DNA from: Frankiaceae bacterium
GTDB taxonomy: Bacteria; Actinomycetota; Actinomycetes; BP-191
Reading direction: 5' to 3'
DNA length: 64,000 nt
Assembly: GCA_035940575.1 (NCBI GenBank)
Contig: DASZER010000011.1
Coordinates: forward strand, 315 to 64,314
Position numbers and translations under genes: made by a program. A model generated the notes under the pieces. That model was not told where the DNA came from. It worked only from the letters and a program-made list of their open reading frames with translations, and searched no databases. Shown here piece by piece: positions 44,942 to 57,101 of the stretch. The stretch's first letter is position 1; every line of letters starts with the position of its first letter.

Positions 44942-45082
44942 ATGAAGCGCATCGCCCTCGGCTTCGCCGCCCTCGCGTCGGCGGCCGCCCTCGCGGCCCC
45001 TGCCGCGGCGCACGAAGTCTGCCTGCCCGTGATCGACTACACAGGCATGCCGATCTGCGTCGACGCCCCGGTCCTGAAGTAG
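44942..45082 (+). CDS. Small secreted Cys-containing peptide (46 aa)
   Basis: RBS GGAGGTGA; MKRIALGFAALASAAALAAPAAA-HEVCLPVIDYTGMPICVDAPVLK. Not in the ORF track. Confidence 0.75.
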   Translation: MKRIALGFAALASAAALAAPAAAHEVCLPVIDYTGMPICVDAPVLK

Positions 45083-45267: not shown

Positions 45268-45444
45268 GTGAAGCGACTCCTTCTCGGCCTCGTGGCCGGG
45301 GCCGCGCTGGCCACGGCCGTCCCCGCGTCGGCCTCCGTGCTGCCCGTGATGTGCGGCATCACACCGCGTTACCCCTGCGGCGTCTGCTACGTCGACGACG
45401 CGACCCAGGAACGGACCTGCGTCAGCCCGCGCGACCTCGTCTGA
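45268..45444 (+). CDS. Small secreted 4-Cys peptide (58 aa)
   Basis: RBS GGGAGGTGA; MKRLLLGLVAGAALATAVPASA-SVLPVMCGITPRYPCGVCYVDDATQERTCVSPRDLV. Not in the ORF track. Confidence 0.75.
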   Translation: MKRLLLGLVAGAALATAVPASASVLPVMCGITPRYPCGVCYVDDATQERTCVSPRDLV

Positions 45445-51530: not shown

Positions 51531-52379
51531 ATGAACCGCACCACCGTCCTCGGCGCCGCCGTCGCGGCGCTGCTCCTCACCATCGCCCCGGCGGGCGCCG
51601 AGACCGAGTACCGCGTCGGCCCCGACCCGACCGCCACCGCCATCGAGAAGAACGGCCCCTTCGCCTACGCCTCCACGACCGTCGCCGACGCGGCCACGCC
51701 CGGCTTCGGCGCCGCGACGATCTACTACCCGACCGACACGACGCTGCCGCCGCTCGGCGGCGTCGCGATCTCGCCCGGCTACACCGAGACGCAGTCGGCG
51801 ATCTCGTGGTTCGGGCCGCGGCTCGCCTCGCACGGCTTCGTCGTCATCACGTTCAACACGAACTCGCCGTACGACCAGCCCGCCGCCCGCGGCGACCAGC
51901 TCCTCGCCGCGCTCGACTACCTGACCGGCAGCAGCGCCGTACGCACCCGCGTCGACGCCTCGCGGCTGGCCGTCATGGGCCACTCGATGGGCGGCGGCGG
52001 CTCGCTGGAGGCGACGAAGAAGCGCCCGTCGCTGCAGGCGTCGATCCCGATGGCGCCGTGGCACACCGACAAGACCTGGCCCGAGCCGGCCACGCCGACG
52101 CTGATCGTCGGCGCCGAGAACGACAGCATCGCCCCGGTCGCGAGCCACGCCGAGCCGTTCTACGAGAGCCTCACCAGCGCGGTCGAGAAGGCGTACGTCG
52201 AGCTCAACAACGCCAGCCACAGCGTCACCAACACCGCCAACGCCACGACCTCCCGCCTCGCCGTCGCGTGGCTCAAGCGGTTCGTGGACAACGACACCCG
52301 CTACGACCAGTTCCTCTGCCCGCCCCCGGCGCCGAGCAGCGCGATCCAGGAGTACCGGGACACCTGCCCGCACGCGTAG
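51531..52379 (+). CDS. Secreted cutinase / PET-hydrolase-like alpha/beta hydrolase
   Basis: Signal peptide; GPDPT, IYYP, PGYT, LASHGFVV, GHSMGGGG, ENDSIAP, NASH, RFVDNDTRY and a C-terminal Cys pair. Confidence 0.92.
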   Translation: MNRTTVLGAAVAALLLTIAPAGAETEYRVGPDPTATAIEKNGPFAYASTTVADAATPGFGAATIYYPTDTTLPPLGGVAISPGYTETQSAISWFGPRLASHGFVVITFNTNSPYDQPAARGDQLLAALDYLTGSSAVRTRVDASRLAVMGHSMGGGGSLEATKKRPSLQASIPMAPWHTDKTWPEPATPTLIVGAENDSIAPVASHAEPFYESLTSAVEKAYVELNNASHSVTNTANATTSRLAVAWLKRFVDNDTRYDQFLCPPPAPSSAIQEYRDTCPHA

Positions 52380-52728
52380 CCGTGCGAGGGCGGGGCGGCG
52401 CGCCCAGCCGCCGCCCCGCCCGCCCCCTCCTTTACACGCGTGCCGGGCCTCCTCTACGGTCGCCGGACCCAGCCGCCCTGCCCAGCGGAGGTGCACCCCT
52501 CGTGCCCCAGCCTCTCGCGCGCCCGCCCCTCCCGTCGTCCTCGCGCGGTCCCGCACCGGACCGCTAGCCCGCGCGGGCGCGCGCCCCGGCTCCGGCCGCG
52601 CGCGACCCGACGCCCCGCGCCTCGTGCGCCCCCAGCCGGCCACGCGCGTGCCTGCCACCCCGCGCGGCGGCGTTCCGTGTCGCCCGGAACGCCTGGACGA
52701 CGTTCGGCGACAGGAGGAGGTGATCCCC

Positions 52729-52926
52729 ATGACCAAGCGATTCGCCGGTCTCGCCCTCGCGGGCGCGGCCGCCCTGACCTTCGTCCTGCCCGCCACCTCG
52801 GCGAGCGCCTCGTGCCAGTTCACAGAGCCGCTCGCGGAGTGCGTGAAGGACCTCGTGTCCACCGTCGGCCCCGCCGTCGGGTGCGTGCCCGTGGGCACAT
52901 TCGAGCTCTGCCCCGTGAGCGCGTAG
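52729..52926 (+). CDS. Small secreted 4-Cys peptide (65 aa)
   Basis: RBS GGAGGAGGTGA; MTKRFAGLALAGAAALTFVLPATSASA-SCQFTEPLAECVKDLVSTVGPAVGCVPVGTFELCPVSA. Confidence 0.75.
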   Translation: MTKRFAGLALAGAAALTFVLPATSASASCQFTEPLAECVKDLVSTVGPAVGCVPVGTFELCPVSA

Positions 52927-53141
52927 CACGACGCCGTCGCCGCGGCGCCTCCCCGGGATTCGGCCCTGGGAACGGCAGCCGGTCGGACGGCGACGGCACA
53001 CGGAGCAACAGGTCCGGAGCGCCGGCGCTCCCCGCCGGGCGGCGGCACGGCCCGCCGGTGGGCGCGGCGCCCCGGACGTCCCGCCAGGGTTTCCGCCCCC
53101 GGCGGGGAACACGTACGGACCACCCCGACGAAGGCCAGGAG

Positions 53142-54119
53142 ATGGACGAGCACGAGACGGCGTACCGCACACCGTTCCGCTCGTGGGACACGCGTGGCTG
53201 GGTGCGCTCGAAGCCGCACCAGCCGACGGAGTTCGCGGACGGGCGGGCGTTCTTCACGCCCGAGGTCGTGCCGCTGCTCGCGCTGCCCGCGGCTGCGGCC
53301 CTGTCGCGCGACGCCGTCGACGACCTCTGCGCGCGCCACCTCCAGTGGCACCTGGCCATGACCGTCGACCTCGAGCTCGGCCCCGTCAACGACGCCGTGC
53401 ACGTCGTCCGCGACTCCGGCGACGTCTTCCCGCGCGACCTGCGCACCGACGCGCTGCGCCTCTACACCGACGAGGCCGGGCACGCCGAGATGTGCGCCAC
53501 GATGGCCGACGCCGTCGAGCGCGCGACCGGCGTCGCGCCGCCCGCCGGCCCGCCGCCGTTCGTGCGCGCGGTGCGCGACGCGGCCGCCGCCGCCGAGCCC
53601 GGCGCCCGCGACGCCGTTCGCCTGCTCGCGGCGTTCGTCTCCGAGACGCTCATCTCGGCGACGCTGACGCGGGTGCCGTTCGACGAGCGCGTGCACGTCG
53701 GCGTACGCCAGCTCGTCGCCGACCACGCCGAGGACGAGCGCCGCCACGCGGTGCTGTTCCGCGACGTGTTCGCGCGCTACTGGCCGTCGCTCGACGCCGC
53801 CGTACGCCGGGCCGTCGGGCTGCTCCTGCCCGACCTGATCACGACGTTCCTCGCGCCCGACGACGCCGAGCTCGCCGTCGCCGCCGCCGCCCACGCCGAC
53901 GTGCTCGGCGACCCCGTCGTCGCGGCGGGCGAGGCGGCGCTGCGGGCGACCGCGAACGGCGCGTTCCTCGCCGCCGCCGAGCCGACGCTGCGCGTGCTGC
54001 ACGAGCACGGCGCGTTCGACGACCCGGATGTCGCGGCGGCGTTCGTCGACTCCGGGCTCTTCCCCGACATCGGGTCCGCCGCGCTGCGCCGGCCGAGCGA
54101 GGCGTTGGCGCCGCGCTGA
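53142..54119 (+). CDS. AurF/CmlI-family ferritin-like diiron oxygenase
   Basis: RBS AGGAG; W...WVRSKP N-terminus, LELGPVN, YTDEAGH, FVSETLIS and DHAEDERRH diiron ligand motifs. Confidence 0.8.
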   Translation: MDEHETAYRTPFRSWDTRGWVRSKPHQPTEFADGRAFFTPEVVPLLALPAAAALSRDAVDDLCARHLQWHLAMTVDLELGPVNDAVHVVRDSGDVFPRDLRTDALRLYTDEAGHAEMCATMADAVERATGVAPPAGPPPFVRAVRDAAAAAEPGARDAVRLLAAFVSETLISATLTRVPFDERVHVGVRQLVADHAEDERRHAVLFRDVFARYWPSLDAAVRRAVGLLLPDLITTFLAPDDAELAVAAAAHADVLGDPVVAAGEAALRATANGAFLAAAEPTLRVLHEHGAFDDPDVAAAFVDSGLFPDIGSAALRRPSEALAPR

Positions 54120-54172
54120 ACGGGGAGGCCCGCACCGACCCGTCCCGACTCGTGCGGAAGGGAGGTGAGCAC

Positions 54173-54361
54173 ATGACCAAGCGCATCGCGCGCCTCGCCC
54201 TCGCGGGCGCCGCGCTGACGGCGTTCGCCCTGCCGGCGGCACCGGCGTCCGCCGCGACCGTCTGCCTGGACCCCGCCACAGTGGCCCCCGTCTGCACGTC
54301 GACGCCCGGCCGGACCTGCGTCGTCCAGGAGCCGACAACCGGCACCGAGCTCTGCGTCTAG
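54173..54361 (+). CDS. Small secreted 4-Cys peptide (62 aa)
   Basis: RBS GGGAGGTGA; MTKRIARLALAGAALTAFALPAAPASA-ATVCLDPATVAPVCTSTPGRTCVVQEPTTGTELCV. Confidence 0.75.
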   Translation: MTKRIARLALAGAALTAFALPAAPASAATVCLDPATVAPVCTSTPGRTCVVQEPTTGTELCV

Positions 54362-54375
54362 ACCCCCCGGAACGC

Positions 54376-54420
54376 GCGCGGGGAGCGGCGGATCGGCCCG
54401 CCGCGCTTCGGCCCCCGCGC
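54376..54420. terminator. Hairpin between convergent genes
   Basis: GCGCGGGG...CCCCGCGC outer stem with an internal GCGGCGG/CCGCCGC stem. Confidence 0.5.
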
Positions 54421-56102
54421 TACCGGGCGGTCGCCACCGACGGCGGCAGCTCGCGGGCGCTCGACGGCAGCGCCACGTCGAGCGCGTACAGCGCGTTGCG
54501 CACCGCCCGTCCCGCCGCCCGCGCCAGGCCCGGGTCGAGGACCCCTCGCCTGGCGCAGTCCAGCGCCGCGCGCGCGATCCTGTCCGCGTGGCCCGCGACG
54601 TCGGCGGCGTCGTAGCGGCCCGCCGCCCGCGCGAACACGTACGGCAGCGCGTTCAGCGCCAGCGCCAGGTCGAGCACCGCCCGCCGCGCCGCCTTGCCCT
54701 CCGGCTCCCGCGCCGACGCGGGCGGGTCGTCCGCGAGCCGCAGCACCGCGAGCAGCCGCGCGAGGCGCGGCGTCGTCTCCGTCCACACGAGGTCGTTGTC
54801 GTAGGTGATCGTGTCCTCGCGCCGCTTCGCGAGGATGAACACCTTCATCAGCGCGACCGCGAGCCGTTCGGCCGTCTCGACGTGGTACGGCTGCGCCTCC
54901 CACTCCGCGACGAACCGGTCGCGGAACCCGTCGAGCAGCGCGTCGGCCGAGACCTCGTTGCCGGTGCGCGAGCGGATCTTGCCGTCGGGGCTGCGGATCA
55001 TGCCGTACCAGATGCCGTCGGTCCCGTCCGCGACGGGCGCGTGACCGAGGCGGCGGAGGATCTCCAGGAACTGGGTGAACGACTCCCGCCACTGCTCGCC
55101 CGTGATCCGCACGACGCGCCCCTTCGGGTGGAGCTGCGCGCGGCGGACCCAGATCGCGACGAAGAACACCAGGGACAACGGCGTCCCGTCGCGCCGCAGC
55201 AACGTCACCTCGCCGAGCCCCACGTCGGAGAGGTCCATGTACACGGAGCCGTCGGGGCGGCGCAGCGCGGTGCCGTTCTCGACGGCCCTGTCGAGCAGCT
55301 CCATCGCGCACGGCAGCGCCTCGAGCTCGCGCAGCACGAAGTCGTGGCGCATCCCGACCCGCAGGTACGTCTCGCGGATGCCCTCGATCGCCCACTCGGT
55401 CACGCGCTCGTTGAGCGCGACCGCGTCGGGGTCGCCCGCCCACTGCCGCCGCAACAGCTCGGCCGCCTCGGCGTCGAGCTCGGTCACCTCGTCGTCGTAG
55501 GCCGCGATCGCCATGCGCTCGGTGTGGAAGCGCGTGTACCAGCGGCCCACCCAGTGGTCCTTCTTCGTGTCCGGCTCGGCGCCCTCGCCCCAGCGCAGGT
55601 ACGCGACGAGCGCCTGGCAGACGTGGATGCCGAAGTTCGCGAGCTCCTCGGTCGTCGTGATCTCCCAGCCCTGCGTCTCGTGGAGGCGCGACGCGGACTT
55701 GCCGAGGAAGACGTTGCGCAGGTGGCCCACGTGCAGCGGCTTGTTCGCGTTGGGGCAGCCGATCGAGAACACCATCGGCTCGCCGAGCGGCGGCTGCCAG
55801 CCGTAGCGGTCGCCGCTCGCCGCGACCGCTTCCGTGACGGCGCGGACGACGAGGCCGTCGGCGGGGCGGACGTAGACGCGCGGCGGGATCGGCAGCGCCG
55901 CCTCGATGCCCTCGACGTCGGCGAGGGTCTTGGCGAGCGTTCGGGCGGCGTCCTTGGGGTTGCCCTCGGGGTCGGCCTCCCGCGCGTCGACGCGGAACTC
56001 CGCGGGCGCGTTCGGTGCCGCCCGCTCGACCTCGAGGCGCAGGCCGGTGGCCCGCTCGATCAGCGCGGAGAGGGCGCGTTCGGCCGGTCCCGCGACCGCC
56101 AC
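54420..56102 (-). CDS. Divergent arginyl-tRNA synthetase-like protein (class I aaRS paralogue)
   Basis: CPNANKPLHVGHLRNVFLG (HIGH), LLRRDGT, YGMI...KIRSRTGN (KMSKS-like) and a DALR-like helical C-terminus; RBS GAGGGAGAGG. Confidence 0.8.
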   Translation of the reverse strand: MAVAGPAERALSALIERATGLRLEVERAAPNAPAEFRVDAREADPEGNPKDAARTLAKTLADVEGIEAALPIPPRVYVRPADGLVVRAVTEAVAASGDRYGWQPPLGEPMVFSIGCPNANKPLHVGHLRNVFLGKSASRLHETQGWEITTTEELANFGIHVCQALVAYLRWGEGAEPDTKKDHWVGRWYTRFHTERMAIAAYDDEVTELDAEAAELLRRQWAGDPDAVALNERVTEWAIEGIRETYLRVGMRHDFVLRELEALPCAMELLDRAVENGTALRRPDGSVYMDLSDVGLGEVTLLRRDGTPLSLVFFVAIWVRRAQLHPKGRVVRITGEQWRESFTQFLEILRRLGHAPVADGTDGIWYGMIRSPDGKIRSRTGNEVSADALLDGFRDRFVAEWEAQPYHVETAERLAVALMKVFILAKRREDTITYDNDLVWTETTPRLARLLAVLRLADDPPASAREPEGKAARRAVLDLALALNALPYVFARAAGRYDAADVAGHADRIARAALDCARRGVLDPGLARAAGRAVRNALYALDVALPSSARELPPSVATAR

Positions 56103-56133
56103 CGCGCCTCTCCCTCTCGTGCCGTGCCTGTCG

Positions 56134-56402
56134 TGCGCCCGACGGGGCTCGAACCCGCAACCTTCGGTTTACAAGACCGATGCTCTTGAGACGGGACGTG
56201 CGATCCGCCCTCGCGCCGCGGGGTCCCACCGACGCCTTCGGCTAGCGCGGTGGAGGGCCGCACGAGGGTCTGCAGCTCCTCGTGAGGAGAGGTGCGCCGC
56301 CGCTAGCAGACGACGTTCTCTCCGGACGACCTGTGGGTGGTTCGTGCGACGGGTCGAGCGGGCCGGGTGTCCCCTCTCTTTCACCGATTGAGCTACGAGC
56401 GC
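56134..56402 (-). tRNA. tRNA with anticodon TGT (Thr reading), D-loop interrupted by a 196-nt structured insertion (56187-56382)
   Basis: The 5' piece GCGCTCG-TA-GCTC-AATCGGT (56402-56383) and the 3' piece A-GAGC-A-TCGGT-CTTGTAA-ACCGA-AGGTT-GCGGG-TTCGAGC-CCCGT-CGGGCGC-A (56186-56134) join into a canonical 73-nt cloverleaf. Confidence 0.85.
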
Positions 56403-56588
56403 AGGGATGCGACGCCCGAATCGGGGCCGCCGGGGGATGGTGGCGGCGCGACGGTGGCGGCGTCAAGGGCGCGCGATGTTCCGGACGGCCCAGGCAGGAA
56501 CCGCCGGATGGGTGACGAATCACCCGCCGTTCGCAGGCACGCGCGTCGCTGCGGGGGCAGGACCGCATGACGAAGGAAGGGACACCCC

Positions 56589-57101
56589 TTGAAGGTCAGC
56601 AAGTACGGAGTGCTCGGGCTCGGCGTCGTCGCCGCGCTCGGCGTCGCGACCCCCGGCTTCACCGGCGGCAACAAGTACGCGCCCGTCGCCGACACCCGCG
56701 ACTGCGGCGACGGCGACGCCGTCAACTGGCTCGGCGCCACCACCCTGTGGCCGCCGAACCACAAGTTCCAGTCCTCGACCGTGGCCGCCGACGGCGGCAC
56801 CGACACCGAGGGCGTCTCGATCGCGATCGTCCCGTCGGTCCTCGACGCGACCGGCGGCGACGGCGGCGCCAACCACGACCCCGACTGGATGTACGAGTCG
56901 GCGCCTGCGACCGGCACGGGCACGGCCACCCAGGACCTCGCGCTGCGCGCCGAGCGTTCGGGCCGTGGCGAGGGCCGCGTGTACACGATCGACTGGACCG
57001 CGACGTTCGACGACGGCCTCAAGACCTGCTCCTCGACCGACGAGGGCCAGACGCCGTTCACCGTCACCGTCCCGCACGACATGCGCGACAAGAACAGCTG
57101 A
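56589..57101 (+). CDS. Secreted protein with an LWPPNHK...LRAER...GRVYTI...VPHD domain
   Basis: RBS GAAGGGA, TTG start, signal peptide and a recognisable conserved motif set. Confidence 0.7.
   Translation: MKVSKYGVLGLGVVAALGVATPGFTGGNKYAPVADTRDCGDGDAVNWLGATTLWPPNHKFQSSTVAADGGTDTEGVSIAIVPSVLDATGGDGGANHDPDWMYESAPATGTGTATQDLALRAERSGRGEGRVYTIDWTATFDDGLKTCSSTDEGQTPFTVTVPHDMRDKNS

Follow-up and report, generated by a model that had tools for sequence, protein, structure and literature searches.

A lineage-restricted locus pairing a giant tRNA(UGU)-like RNA with an arginyl-tRNA synthetase paralogue suggests special decoding of ACA codons in secreted Cys-loop peptides

To our knowledge, there are two natural expansions of the genetic code, both of which act on stop codons, and the sense-codon changes that we know of are either genome-wide or a form of deliberate mistranslation. 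Here, we describe a locus in a 64,000-nucleotide (nt) stretch of DNA from a Frankiaceae bacterium (assembly GCA_035940575.1, contig DASZER010000011.1, positions 315 to 64,314 of the forward strand; hereafter the window), in which a giant tRNA-like RNA (tRNA*) lies just upstream of the gene for a 560-aa protein resembling arginyl-tRNA synthetase (ArgRS; P0001, hereafter the paralogue). The genome that holds the window (G000; genomes and loci are denoted by G and L, respectively) has been assembled to 3.2 Mb in 75 contigs, has a GC content of 73% and is rated 80% complete. Our analyses suggest a lineage-restricted decoding cassette of four parts, namely tRNA*, the ArgRS-derived synthetase, an AurF-like oxygenase and secreted peptides with Cys loops. 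In the reading that we favour, and to which we give about an even chance, the paralogue would charge tRNA* with a residue other than threonine or arginine, and the ribosome would insert this residue at ACA codons of the peptide genes.

Several described systems share features with this locus. The pyrrolysine system (PylRS, tRNA-Pyl and pylBCD) likewise combines a dedicated synthetase, a tRNA, biosynthetic enzymes and an in-frame special codon in target genes, and here tRNA*, the synthetase, the oxygenase and ACA-bearing targets all occur in the same 5 of 17 genomes surveyed within the order. It differs in that its codon is the stop codon UAG, its enzyme is of class II and its tRNA is compact, whereas a sense codon and a competing normal tRNA are involved here. 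The selenocysteine system (tRNA-Sec, SelA and SelB) also relies on an unusual tRNA that serves as an enzyme handle, with conversion of the residue on the tRNA; however, tRNA-Sec is about 95 nt long, and the system needs SelB and an mRNA element, neither of which was found here. The bldA tRNA-Leu(UAA), which reads TTA, resembles our case in a very rare A/U-ending codon, a high-GC actinobacterial host and a special gene set. No other tRNA serves that codon there, and the residue delivered is the normal one, whereas here an isoacceptor coexists and the codon occupies fixed structural positions.

Two systems that act on sense codons are closer in other respects. ProRSx and the tRNA-ProX species (ProA, ProN and ProT) occur in Streptomyces and Kitasatospora (PMC10404621). 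According to that paper, they too belong to high-GC actinobacteria; the gene of an aminoacyl-tRNA synthetase isoform adjoins that of a tRNA whose body and anticodon do not match, and the pair reads a sense codon with another residue. The initial annotation of our locus had named tRNA-ProA as the precedent with a Thr anticodon; in the source it is tRNA-ProT (AGU) that carries it. The ProRSx system differs in that its tRNAs are of normal size, proline is still used and mistranslation is proteome-wide. The locus studied here also places a synthetase isoform beside a tRNA with a foreign anticodon; unlike ProRSx, it is of ArgRS lineage, has lost the parental (arginine) pocket, has a 196-nt tRNA domain and has target genes with fixed codon places, in which ACA is concentrated. 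In RAAP-2 Acidimicrobiales, ACA has been reassigned from Thr to Asp (bioRxiv 10.64898/2026.05.03.722492). That preprint describes the capture of the GC-depleted codon ACA by an altered tRNA(UGU), again in high-GC Actinomycetota, and a G1:U72 pair, which is also present in the tRNA* of one of our distant loci (L007). The change reported there affects the whole genome, the tRNA is of normal size and its D-loop has 10 nt, and the authors found no duplicated synthetase. In contrast, ordinary ACA acts as Thr in our case, a normal tRNA-Thr(UGU) stays, and only peptide genes show the special use. Taken together, the cassette is set apart from ProRSx, pyrrolysine, selenocysteine and RAAP-2 by its ArgRS lineage with a lost pocket, its 196-nt D-loop domain, the coexisting normal decoding and its dedicated peptide targets. 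A keyword-based literature search retrieved no ArgRS paralogue with its own tRNA and no bacterial tRNA with a large D-loop insert, and ArgRS does not feature in the main text of a review (PMC9437257).

The RNA and the synthetase gene occupy the following positions of the window:

56134..56402, minus strand: tRNA*, 269 nt, anticodon UGU at 56173..56171 (from sequence, the Rfam tRNA model, conservation and RNA contigs).
56383..56402, minus strand: 5' tRNA part, 20 nt, with the acceptor 5' strand, U8 A9, the D-stem 5' strand and the D-loop from A14 to U20 with G18 G19.
56187..56382, minus strand: insert, 196 nt between D-loop positions 20 and 21, with the exit helix GAGAGGGGAC / GTCCCGTCTC.
56224..56333, minus strand: insert core, six helices and two conserved 7-nt loops, UGCUAGC and AGCCGAA.
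56134..56186, minus strand: 3' tRNA part, with A21, the D-stem 3' strand, anticodon arm, variable loop, T-arm, acceptor 3' strand and discriminator A.
56103..56133, minus strand: spacer, 31 nt, with a GAGGGAGAGG ribosome-binding site and no terminator.
54420..56102, minus strand: ArgRS paralogue P0001, 560 aa, with the full ArgRS fold, the HIGH motif (HVGH) and replaced arginine-binding residues.

The two tRNA parts form a cloverleaf with four paired stems, G18 G19 and a TTCGA T-loop (acceptor stem GCGCTCG/CGGGCGC with discriminator A; D-stem GCTC/GAGC; anticodon arm TCGGT-CTTGTAA-ACCGA; variable loop AGGTT; T-arm GCGGG-TTCGAGC-CCCGT). As the initial annotation had it, U20 is followed by a large insertion and base 35 is G: the D-loop reads AATCGGT (G18 G19 U20), after which come 196 extra nt and then A21. 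CCA is not encoded in the tRNA* gene of the window. The length of 269 nt exceeds the 70-95 nt of a tRNA, and RNA contigs retain the insert. ARAGORN, which called three other tRNAs in the window, gave no call for tRNA*; the Rfam tRNA model (RF00005) aligned locally to 56134..56203 with 30.2 bits against a gathering score of 29, skipping the insert.

When compared with the tRNAs of its own genome, the tRNA* body was closest to tRNA-Arg(ACG) (79% identity) and tRNA-Arg(TCT) (78%), followed by tRNA-Thr(TGT) (73%), in line with the tRNA-Arg-like acceptor stem noted at the outset. Its acceptor 3' strand and discriminator are those of tRNA-Arg(TCT), from which its anticodon loop differs only at base 35. 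These identities suggest that the body derives from a tRNA-Arg. The identity bases of ArgRS are A20 and C35; since both are absent from tRNA*, normal ArgRS should ignore it. A canonical tRNA-Thr(UGU) gene lies elsewhere in the genome (G000:C8:34270-34344), and such a gene was present in every genome checked (G000, G001, G003 and G005). Thus tRNA* is neither the sole tRNA for a rare codon, as bldA is, nor the only tRNA(UGU) of the genome, which was part of one case that the initial annotation had named as fatal to its proposal.

The GTG start of the paralogue lies 31 nt past the tRNA* discriminator, behind the strong GAGGGAGAGG ribosome-binding site, on the same strand, and a terminator scan found none between them, so that the layout originally described was confirmed in the window. 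A scan for sigma-70 promoters across 52400..56700 found none. The sole Pfam match of the paralogue was PF00750 (ArgRS catalytic domain, 65.7 bits), and its score of 108.1 bits against TIGR00456 falls below the cut-off of 261.65 for argS equivalogs. A canonical argS of 545 aa with canonical motifs is encoded elsewhere (G000:C43), so that this gene and the normal tRNA-Thr(TGT) were both found where the initial annotation had expected them, outside the locus. The AlphaFold2 model of the paralogue (pLDDT 93.7) had the yeast ArgRS-tRNA complex 1f7u_A as its best Foldseek match (TM 0.80, full length, 585 aligned columns). Because the superposition on ArgRS is full-length, the N-terminal and helical anticodon-binding domains are both present, together with the Rossmann core, in the three-domain ArgRS fold. 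The class I signature is kept as well: PLHVGH is invariant across 32/32 family members, and HVGH and the PN asparagine are invariant in the alignment.

The arginine pocket was examined at the columns of yeast Glu148, Tyr347 and Asp351, which we take to bind the guanidinium group of arginine. These columns hold E/D, Y and D in all six canonical ArgRS; in the close clade they hold S, S/A and F. Among 12 aligned paralogues, all have varied residues in the pocket, none of them acidic and none forming a Tyr/Asp pair, so that the arginine-binding residues are retained in none of the 12. The canonical C-terminal ERM is also replaced in the paralogue. Compared with canonical ArgRS/tRNA-Arg (PDB 1f7u), the pair therefore shares the three-domain fold, the HIGH motif and a tRNA-Arg-like body, but differs in the argS equivalog score, the arginine-binding residues, the C-terminal ERM and the absence of A20 and C35 from the tRNA. 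Judged by its sequence, the paralogue is an ArgRS with a lost arginine pocket and an intact ATP site, and the combination of an intact ATP site with a rebuilt side-chain pocket argues for a residue other than Arg. The hydrophobic pocket and the aryl-amine N-oxygenase family of the neighbouring oxygenase hint that this residue may be aromatic or oxidised. The N-terminal domain of ArgRS reads D-loop base 20, the site of the insert in tRNA*, and tRNA* and the paralogue look like a duplicated Arg pair that diverged jointly.

Relatives of the paralogue comprised 24 close proteins (57-88% identity) from Mycobacteriales and Frankiaceae-labelled metagenome-assembled genomes (MAGs) and metagenomes, and seven distant ones (31-37% identity), likewise without Pfam N-terminal and DALR matches; the other matches of the protein search were ordinary ArgRS. 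Six distinct close-clade loci were readable as DNA (the window, L005=L055, L006=L056, L019=L057, L058 and L020), and the interrupted tRNA was found at all six. The tRNA parts are identical in four of the five relatives; the differences seen are a single compensatory change in the anticodon stem of L058 (G-C to C-G) and a single T-loop change in L020. At five close loci tRNA* lies 27-52 nt upstream of the paralogue. At L020 it lies on the opposite strand, about 2 kb off, from which it follows that tRNA* acts in trans. Beyond the close clade, an Acidimicrobiaceae MAG encodes a paralogue of 36% identity (L007), and a tRNA(UGU) of 200 nt, likewise interrupted in the D-loop, is located 294 nt upstream of it; the UGU anticodon loop is invariant across both lineages. 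The operon layout described in the initial annotation was thus seen at five close loci, but not at L020 or, with its wider spacing, at L007. Similarly, the prediction of such a tRNA consistently upstream of homologues was borne out in that tRNA* accompanies all six close loci and L007, and not in seven distant loci that are without it.

In the order-level survey of 17 genomes, the paralogue, the tRNA* junction pattern and the oxygenase were each found in the identical five genomes and were all missing in the other 12, including G001, a cassette-free genome of the same genus that is 100% complete. The tRNA-insert junction pattern was also absent from the distant genomes G018-G020. Because the same arrangement recurs in relatives, the association of tRNA* with the paralogue is not due to chance. 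With the pair linked at every close locus, both members present in 5 of 17 genomes and neither in 12 of 17, the tRNA body Arg-like but devoid of A20 and C35, and the arginine pocket lost, the idea of a dedicated tRNA/synthetase-paralogue pair put forward in the initial annotation has held up well.

Several further observations concern the distant lineage. The tRNA beside the L007 paralogue (L007:3408-3607, 200 nt) has a G1.U72 pair, and its Acidimicrobiaceae genome (G017) also holds a normal tRNA-Thr(UGU) with G1-C72. Within the insert of the L007 tRNA (L007:3490-3560), 10 nt of the D-stem 3' side are directly repeated (CAAGAGCATT), 46 nt ahead of the real copy; the repeat could be a trace of the origin of the insert or an alternative D-stem partner. 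A second expanded tRNA(UGU) of about 250 nt, with A1-U72 and an encoded CCA, was found in G017 (G017:C77, ~89.3 kb; L120:1496-1745), with no ArgRS-like gene within the 12 kb read. The flanks of distant paralogues (30-37% identity) vary and hold metabolic genes: a MetRS-cupin fusion and an aminotransferase at L015, an argininosuccinate-synthase-like protein and RidA at L022, an FAD oxidoreductase at L021, a fatty-acid desaturase at L010 and a luciferase-like monooxygenase at L007. In these five the arginine-binding residues are lost with different replacements each time, as if each distant paralogue had its own substrate. In addition, G002 encodes a second paralogue of 38% identity on another contig (L059, G002:C145:5515-7197), without an adjoining tRNA*.

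The insert shows signs of a conserved structure. The exit helix covaries between the window (GGGAC/GTCCC) and L019 (GGAGC/GCTCC). In an Alifold prediction from six sequences, 13 of 72 predicted pairs hold their pairing through two-sided changes; in the alignment of the insert core, 92.3% of cells are paired versus 42-54% with slid partners, and five pairs are altered on both sides, a number reached in 0/500 shuffles, although six sequences of related organisms are few and offer support rather than proof. From the single sequence, the fold is unremarkable at such GC content (z -1.34). The insert is single copy in G000 (nhmmer E 6.7e-38; next best 0.17), and a covariance model of its core (R1) gave one match each in G000, G003, G004 and G005 and none in the 147 other genomes of the class.

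RNA contigs of relatives from four metatranscriptome runs (three studies) join the tRNA parts to the insert. The depths of insert-bearing contigs were 56, 100, 266, 904 and 4532, and flanking coding sequence had a depth of 0-10 in three of the four runs. No joint removing the insert was seen among the RNA contigs of the four runs, a kind of evidence beyond whose reach a rare spliced form would lie. One contig stops within 3 nt of the tRNA* 5' end and continues into adapter-like sequence, presumably an Illumina adapter. Another contig of a relative (X20, record 4) spans the paralogue 5' end, the spacer and tRNA*, which does not by itself prove a single transcript. Contigs ending at 56186 stem from ordinary tRNA-Thr genes of other organisms, and stretches without RNA contig cover, as well as small word shares, were taken as evidence neither way. 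The abundant RNA species is the long, insert-bearing form, and the insert is suggested to be a folded domain that stays in the mature RNA. It probably acts as an identity handle at the place where the ArgRS N-terminal domain makes contact, and it perhaps also serves as a handle for the oxygenase.

These data bear on two other explanations, in which either the insert is a spliced intron or mobile element in an ordinary tRNA-Thr gene, with the paralogue nearby only incidentally, or the tRNA-like fold is a leader that regulates the paralogue mRNA in cis. Group I introns do occur in bacterial tRNA genes, and a terminator-free stretch of 31 nt separates the RNA from the paralogue downstream. However, an Rfam search of 55900..56700 at E<=1 returned nothing besides tRNA and hence no intron or ribozyme family, the insert is single copy, and insert-bearing RNA is abundant with no clean joint seen, even if contigs cannot prove its absence. 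Furthermore, the tRNA* body is Arg-like and not Thr-like, and the position of the L020 RNA, on the opposite strand and 2 kb from the paralogue, rules out a purely cis role. We consider these explanations very improbable. A tRNA gene of the group I intron type was specifically rejected: besides the lack of an Rfam match and of a clean joint in the four RNA runs, the insert is in the D-loop and not in the anticodon loop.

The evidence for what tRNA* may decode comes from four small secreted-peptide genes of the window and their relatives:

54173..54361, plus strand: pepA, secreted, 62 aa, two Cys loops, ACA at 54278-54280 and 54335-54337.
52729..52926, plus strand: pepB, secreted, 65 aa, two Cys loops, ACA at 52822-52824 and 52897-52899.
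44942..45082, plus strand: pepC, secreted, 46 aa, one loop (CLPVIDY-ACA-GMPIC), ACA at 45041-45043.
45268..45444, plus strand: pepD, secreted, 58 aa, loop CGI-ACA-PRYPC, ACA at 45361-45363.

PepA and PepB share a signal peptide (MTKR..ALPAAPA.A) and two Cys..Cys loops with one ACA per loop. This codon is very rare in G000, with 162 occurrences among the 430,432 codons of 1134 long open reading frames (ORFs), a frequency of 0.38 per 1000 and a share of 0.6% among Thr codons. In the 17 genes of the main peptide family, ACA makes up 31 of 92 Thr-box codons: none of the 31 located before the first Cys and 31 of the 61 after it. All 31 ACA codons fall inside a Cys..Cys loop, and 31 of 32 loops contain exactly one. 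L020 adds two more peptide genes with five ACA codons, situated between tRNA* and the oxygenase on one strand with tRNA* directly upstream. In the pepC and pepD families, the loop ACA is kept in all five genes (pepC 2/2, pepD 3/3), including the pepC orthologue in G005 and the pepD orthologues in G005 and G003 (CGI-ACA-PRIPC). The total is 41 loop ACA codons in 24 peptide genes. Since the peptides are mutually only ~40% identical and their other codons exceed 90% GC at third positions, the ACA codon itself is under selection. Recoding of ACA had been one of three readings offered in the initial annotation, and these genes lend it unexpected direct support.

Strong matches to the peptide profile (E<=3.6e-6 with this architecture) were limited to the five cassette genomes. 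Some of the peptide genes lie on contigs other than that of tRNA*, which would therefore act on them in trans. When the entire G000 genome was scanned for C..ACA..C loops with good coding frames, only four passed, all on the contig of the window. Selection of the codon at fixed positions, in genes that are co-inherited with a tRNA of matching anticodon, argues for ribosomal decoding. In the same way, a fixed, one-per-loop ACA beside ordinary ACC/ACG Thr codons argues for a residue other than plain Thr.

As a control, 153 ordinary ORF pairs of G000 and G005 (60,280 codons) were compared. Of 37 ACA codons, 22 aligned to Thr, at which G005 has ACC, ACG or ACT in 16 cases and ACA in six; the corresponding figure for ACT was 18/25, and ACA behaved much alike. 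The paralogue and oxygenase genes have no conserved ACA. Genome-wide ACA REASSIGNMENT in G000 was thus not supported. Nor was genome-wide ACA REASSIGNMENT supported in the Acidimicrobiaceae genome G017, where a canonical G1-C72 tRNA-Thr(UGU) is present: 16 aligned ACA positions were mostly variable sites, one in a conserved motif was aligned to Thr and Asp appeared once, and its ORFs contain 155 ACA versus 189 ACT. The special use of ACA is local to the peptide genes and not a change of the whole code; ordinary ACA stays Thr.

The rarity of ACA and the co-occurrence of the peptide genes with tRNA* would also fit a regulatory role, in which tRNA* delivers Thr, its expression gates translation of the peptides, and the paralogue has some other tRNA-tied role, much as the bldA tRNA governs TTA-containing genes in Streptomyces. 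On the other hand, the normal tRNA-Thr(UGU) in every genome checked, the cassette-free G001 included, means that ACA can be read already. Any ACA would suffice for such control, yet there is one in 31/32 Cys loops and 0/31 upstream of the first Cys, and both the rebuilt synthetase pocket and the 196-nt insert would be left unexplained. We regard control of this kind as rather improbable.

A number of additional features of the peptide genes were noted. Two peptide genes of cassette genomes, in G002:C125 and G000:C44, are without ACA and depart from the otherwise clean pattern; they are read as other Cys-peptide families. A further departure is a Cys peptide with ACA in its first loop in G006 (G006:C134:2555-2719), a genome in which no paralogue, tRNA* or oxygenase was found; the cassette may simply be unassembled there (73% complete, 370 contigs). 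In G003:C18:18104-18295, the second loop (CIPSGDLERPC) has an Asp codon where relatives have Gly-ACA, with TGA directly after the last Cys, and this gene may be a decaying copy or a hint at what the ACA residue resembles. TGA is the usual stop codon in high-GC actinobacteria; the 17 main-family genes end in TAG (12), TAA (3) and TGA (2), and all of them have a strong GGAGGTGA-type ribosome-binding site.

The fourth part of the cassette is located downstream of the paralogue and convergent with it, in a plus-strand row of pepB, the oxygenase and pepA:

53142..54119, plus strand: AurF-like diiron oxygenase, 325 aa, PF11583 (73.9 bits), in the atlas cluster 'diiron oxygenase family'.

Its start was inferred to be the ATG at 53142, the point where relatives start aligning. 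The oxygenase flanks the paralogue at all five other close loci. Among the other neighbours, a 170-aa ORF (56589-57101, plus strand) with no family match and no ACA codons is divergent from tRNA*; it is kept beside the tRNA in L005, L019 and L058, and not in L006 or L020. Just upstream of pepB lies a PETase/cutinase-like hydrolase (51531-52379, plus strand; PF12740, 365.6 bits), for which tblastn found no counterpart in the loci of relatives.

The constant presence of the oxygenase raises the possibility of a route like that of selenocysteine, in which ThrRS would load Thr onto tRNA* and the paralogue and/or the oxygenase would convert it on the tRNA before insertion at ACA. ACA would be recoded in this case too, though with the paralogue not acting as the charging enzyme; the insert would be the handle by which the converting enzymes recognise tRNA*. 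The main-clade tRNA* retains G1-C72, C2-G71, G35 and U36, all of which we take to be ThrRS identity elements. The weak peptide relative in G001 has a Thr codon before Phe in the loop CNPTFHLVC, like the ACA-Phe motif, and the enzymes that convert the residue on tRNA-Sec recognise it via its unusual D-arm. However, the acceptor stem is no more than an inheritance from tRNA-Arg, and the paralogue has retained both the HIGH motif and the alpha-amino asparagine, as would be expected if it activates an amino acid itself. Moreover, the Acidimicrobiaceae tRNA* have G1.U72 and A1-U72, and U72 is almost never found in tRNA-Thr according to the preprint on RAAP-2 (bioRxiv 10.64898/2026.05.03.722492). 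In our judgement this route is unlikely, if still the strongest of the alternatives.

Another alternative is that aminoacyl-tRNA* never enters the ribosome and donates its residue to a peptide-tailoring or small-molecule enzyme. Such tRNA-dependent tailoring enzymes are known, distant paralogues adjoin metabolic enzymes, and the bulky insert may not fit the ribosome. Nevertheless, non-ribosomal use gives no reason for the selection of a codon (41 ACA in 24 peptide genes) and leaves the invariant UGU anticodon loop in both lineages unexplained, and the scanned neighbours included no transferase of Fem-, CDPS- or PEARL-like type. We hold this alternative to be quite improbable.

Building on the anatomy, conservation and covariation of the RNA, the abundance of its unspliced form, the co-occurrence of the parts, the lost arginine pocket and the pattern of ACA codons, we infer the mode of charging, the kind of residue, its ribosomal entry and the roles of insert and oxygenase as follows. 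The paralogue would recognise tRNA* and load a residue that is neither Arg nor Thr, with its N-terminal domain sitting at the foot of the insert. The oxygenase would make or tailor this residue, either before or after loading, or would act on the peptide. At the ACA codons of peptide mRNAs, this residue would then be inserted by the ribosome, with tRNA* competing against the ordinary tRNA-Thr(UGU); the few other ACA codons would be left to the latter. In its fullest form, this proposal amounts to a further genetically encoded non-canonical amino acid at the peptide ACA codons, for which one actinobacterial genus would have captured a nearly vacant sense codon, with an orthogonal pair derived from tRNA-Arg and ArgRS, the insert as identity handle and a residue made or finished by the oxygenase; we put it forward tentatively, as a possibility with the chances against it.

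Several points weigh against decoding by a tRNA* that the paralogue has charged. A 196-nt domain at the tRNA elbow may fail to pass through the ribosome. The retained G1-C72, C2-G71, G35 and U36, whose role with ThrRS is presumed here, mean that tRNA* might be charged with Thr by ThrRS. With a normal tRNA-Thr(UGU) present, ACA would be readable in two ways, and nothing directing the choice was found: there is no cassette-specific EF-Tu or SelB-like gene (PF00009 matches number 8 in G000, 8 in G001 and 10-11 in G003-G005, split matches included), and no excess pairing between insert and mRNA (RNAduplex energies equal those of shuffled mRNAs; full-length duplexes are meaningless). In the weak peptide relative of G001, what may be the equivalent position is taken by an ordinary Thr codon. 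Outside the close clade, no tRNA* was found near seven distant paralogue loci (L008/L009, L010, L015, L021-L023 and L059), and neither the profile nor the L007 and 338-kb scans turned up an ACA-peptide partner in the Acidimicrobiaceae genome; the main-family peptide profile likewise found none in the distant genomes G017-G020. Finally, the cassette genomes represent one genus and one metagenome relative, so that the co-occurrence counts are not independent.

With these points considered, we rank direct charging of tRNA* by the paralogue first, followed by conversion of Thr on tRNA*, bldA-like control, non-ribosomal use and, last, an intron or cis-acting leader. The preferred reading points to a third mode of code use, in which GC pressure has emptied a sense codon that is then put to new use at fixed sites of a dedicated gene family, alongside its normal reading. 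If true, it would provide a new orthogonal class I synthetase/tRNA pair for code engineering, would show that a tRNA is able to carry a ~200-nt domain at its elbow, and would open up secreted peptides of a new class. Even with plain Thr as the residue, a tRNA of 270 nt that is abundant and tied to a paralogue of a synthetase would be a new kind of RNA.

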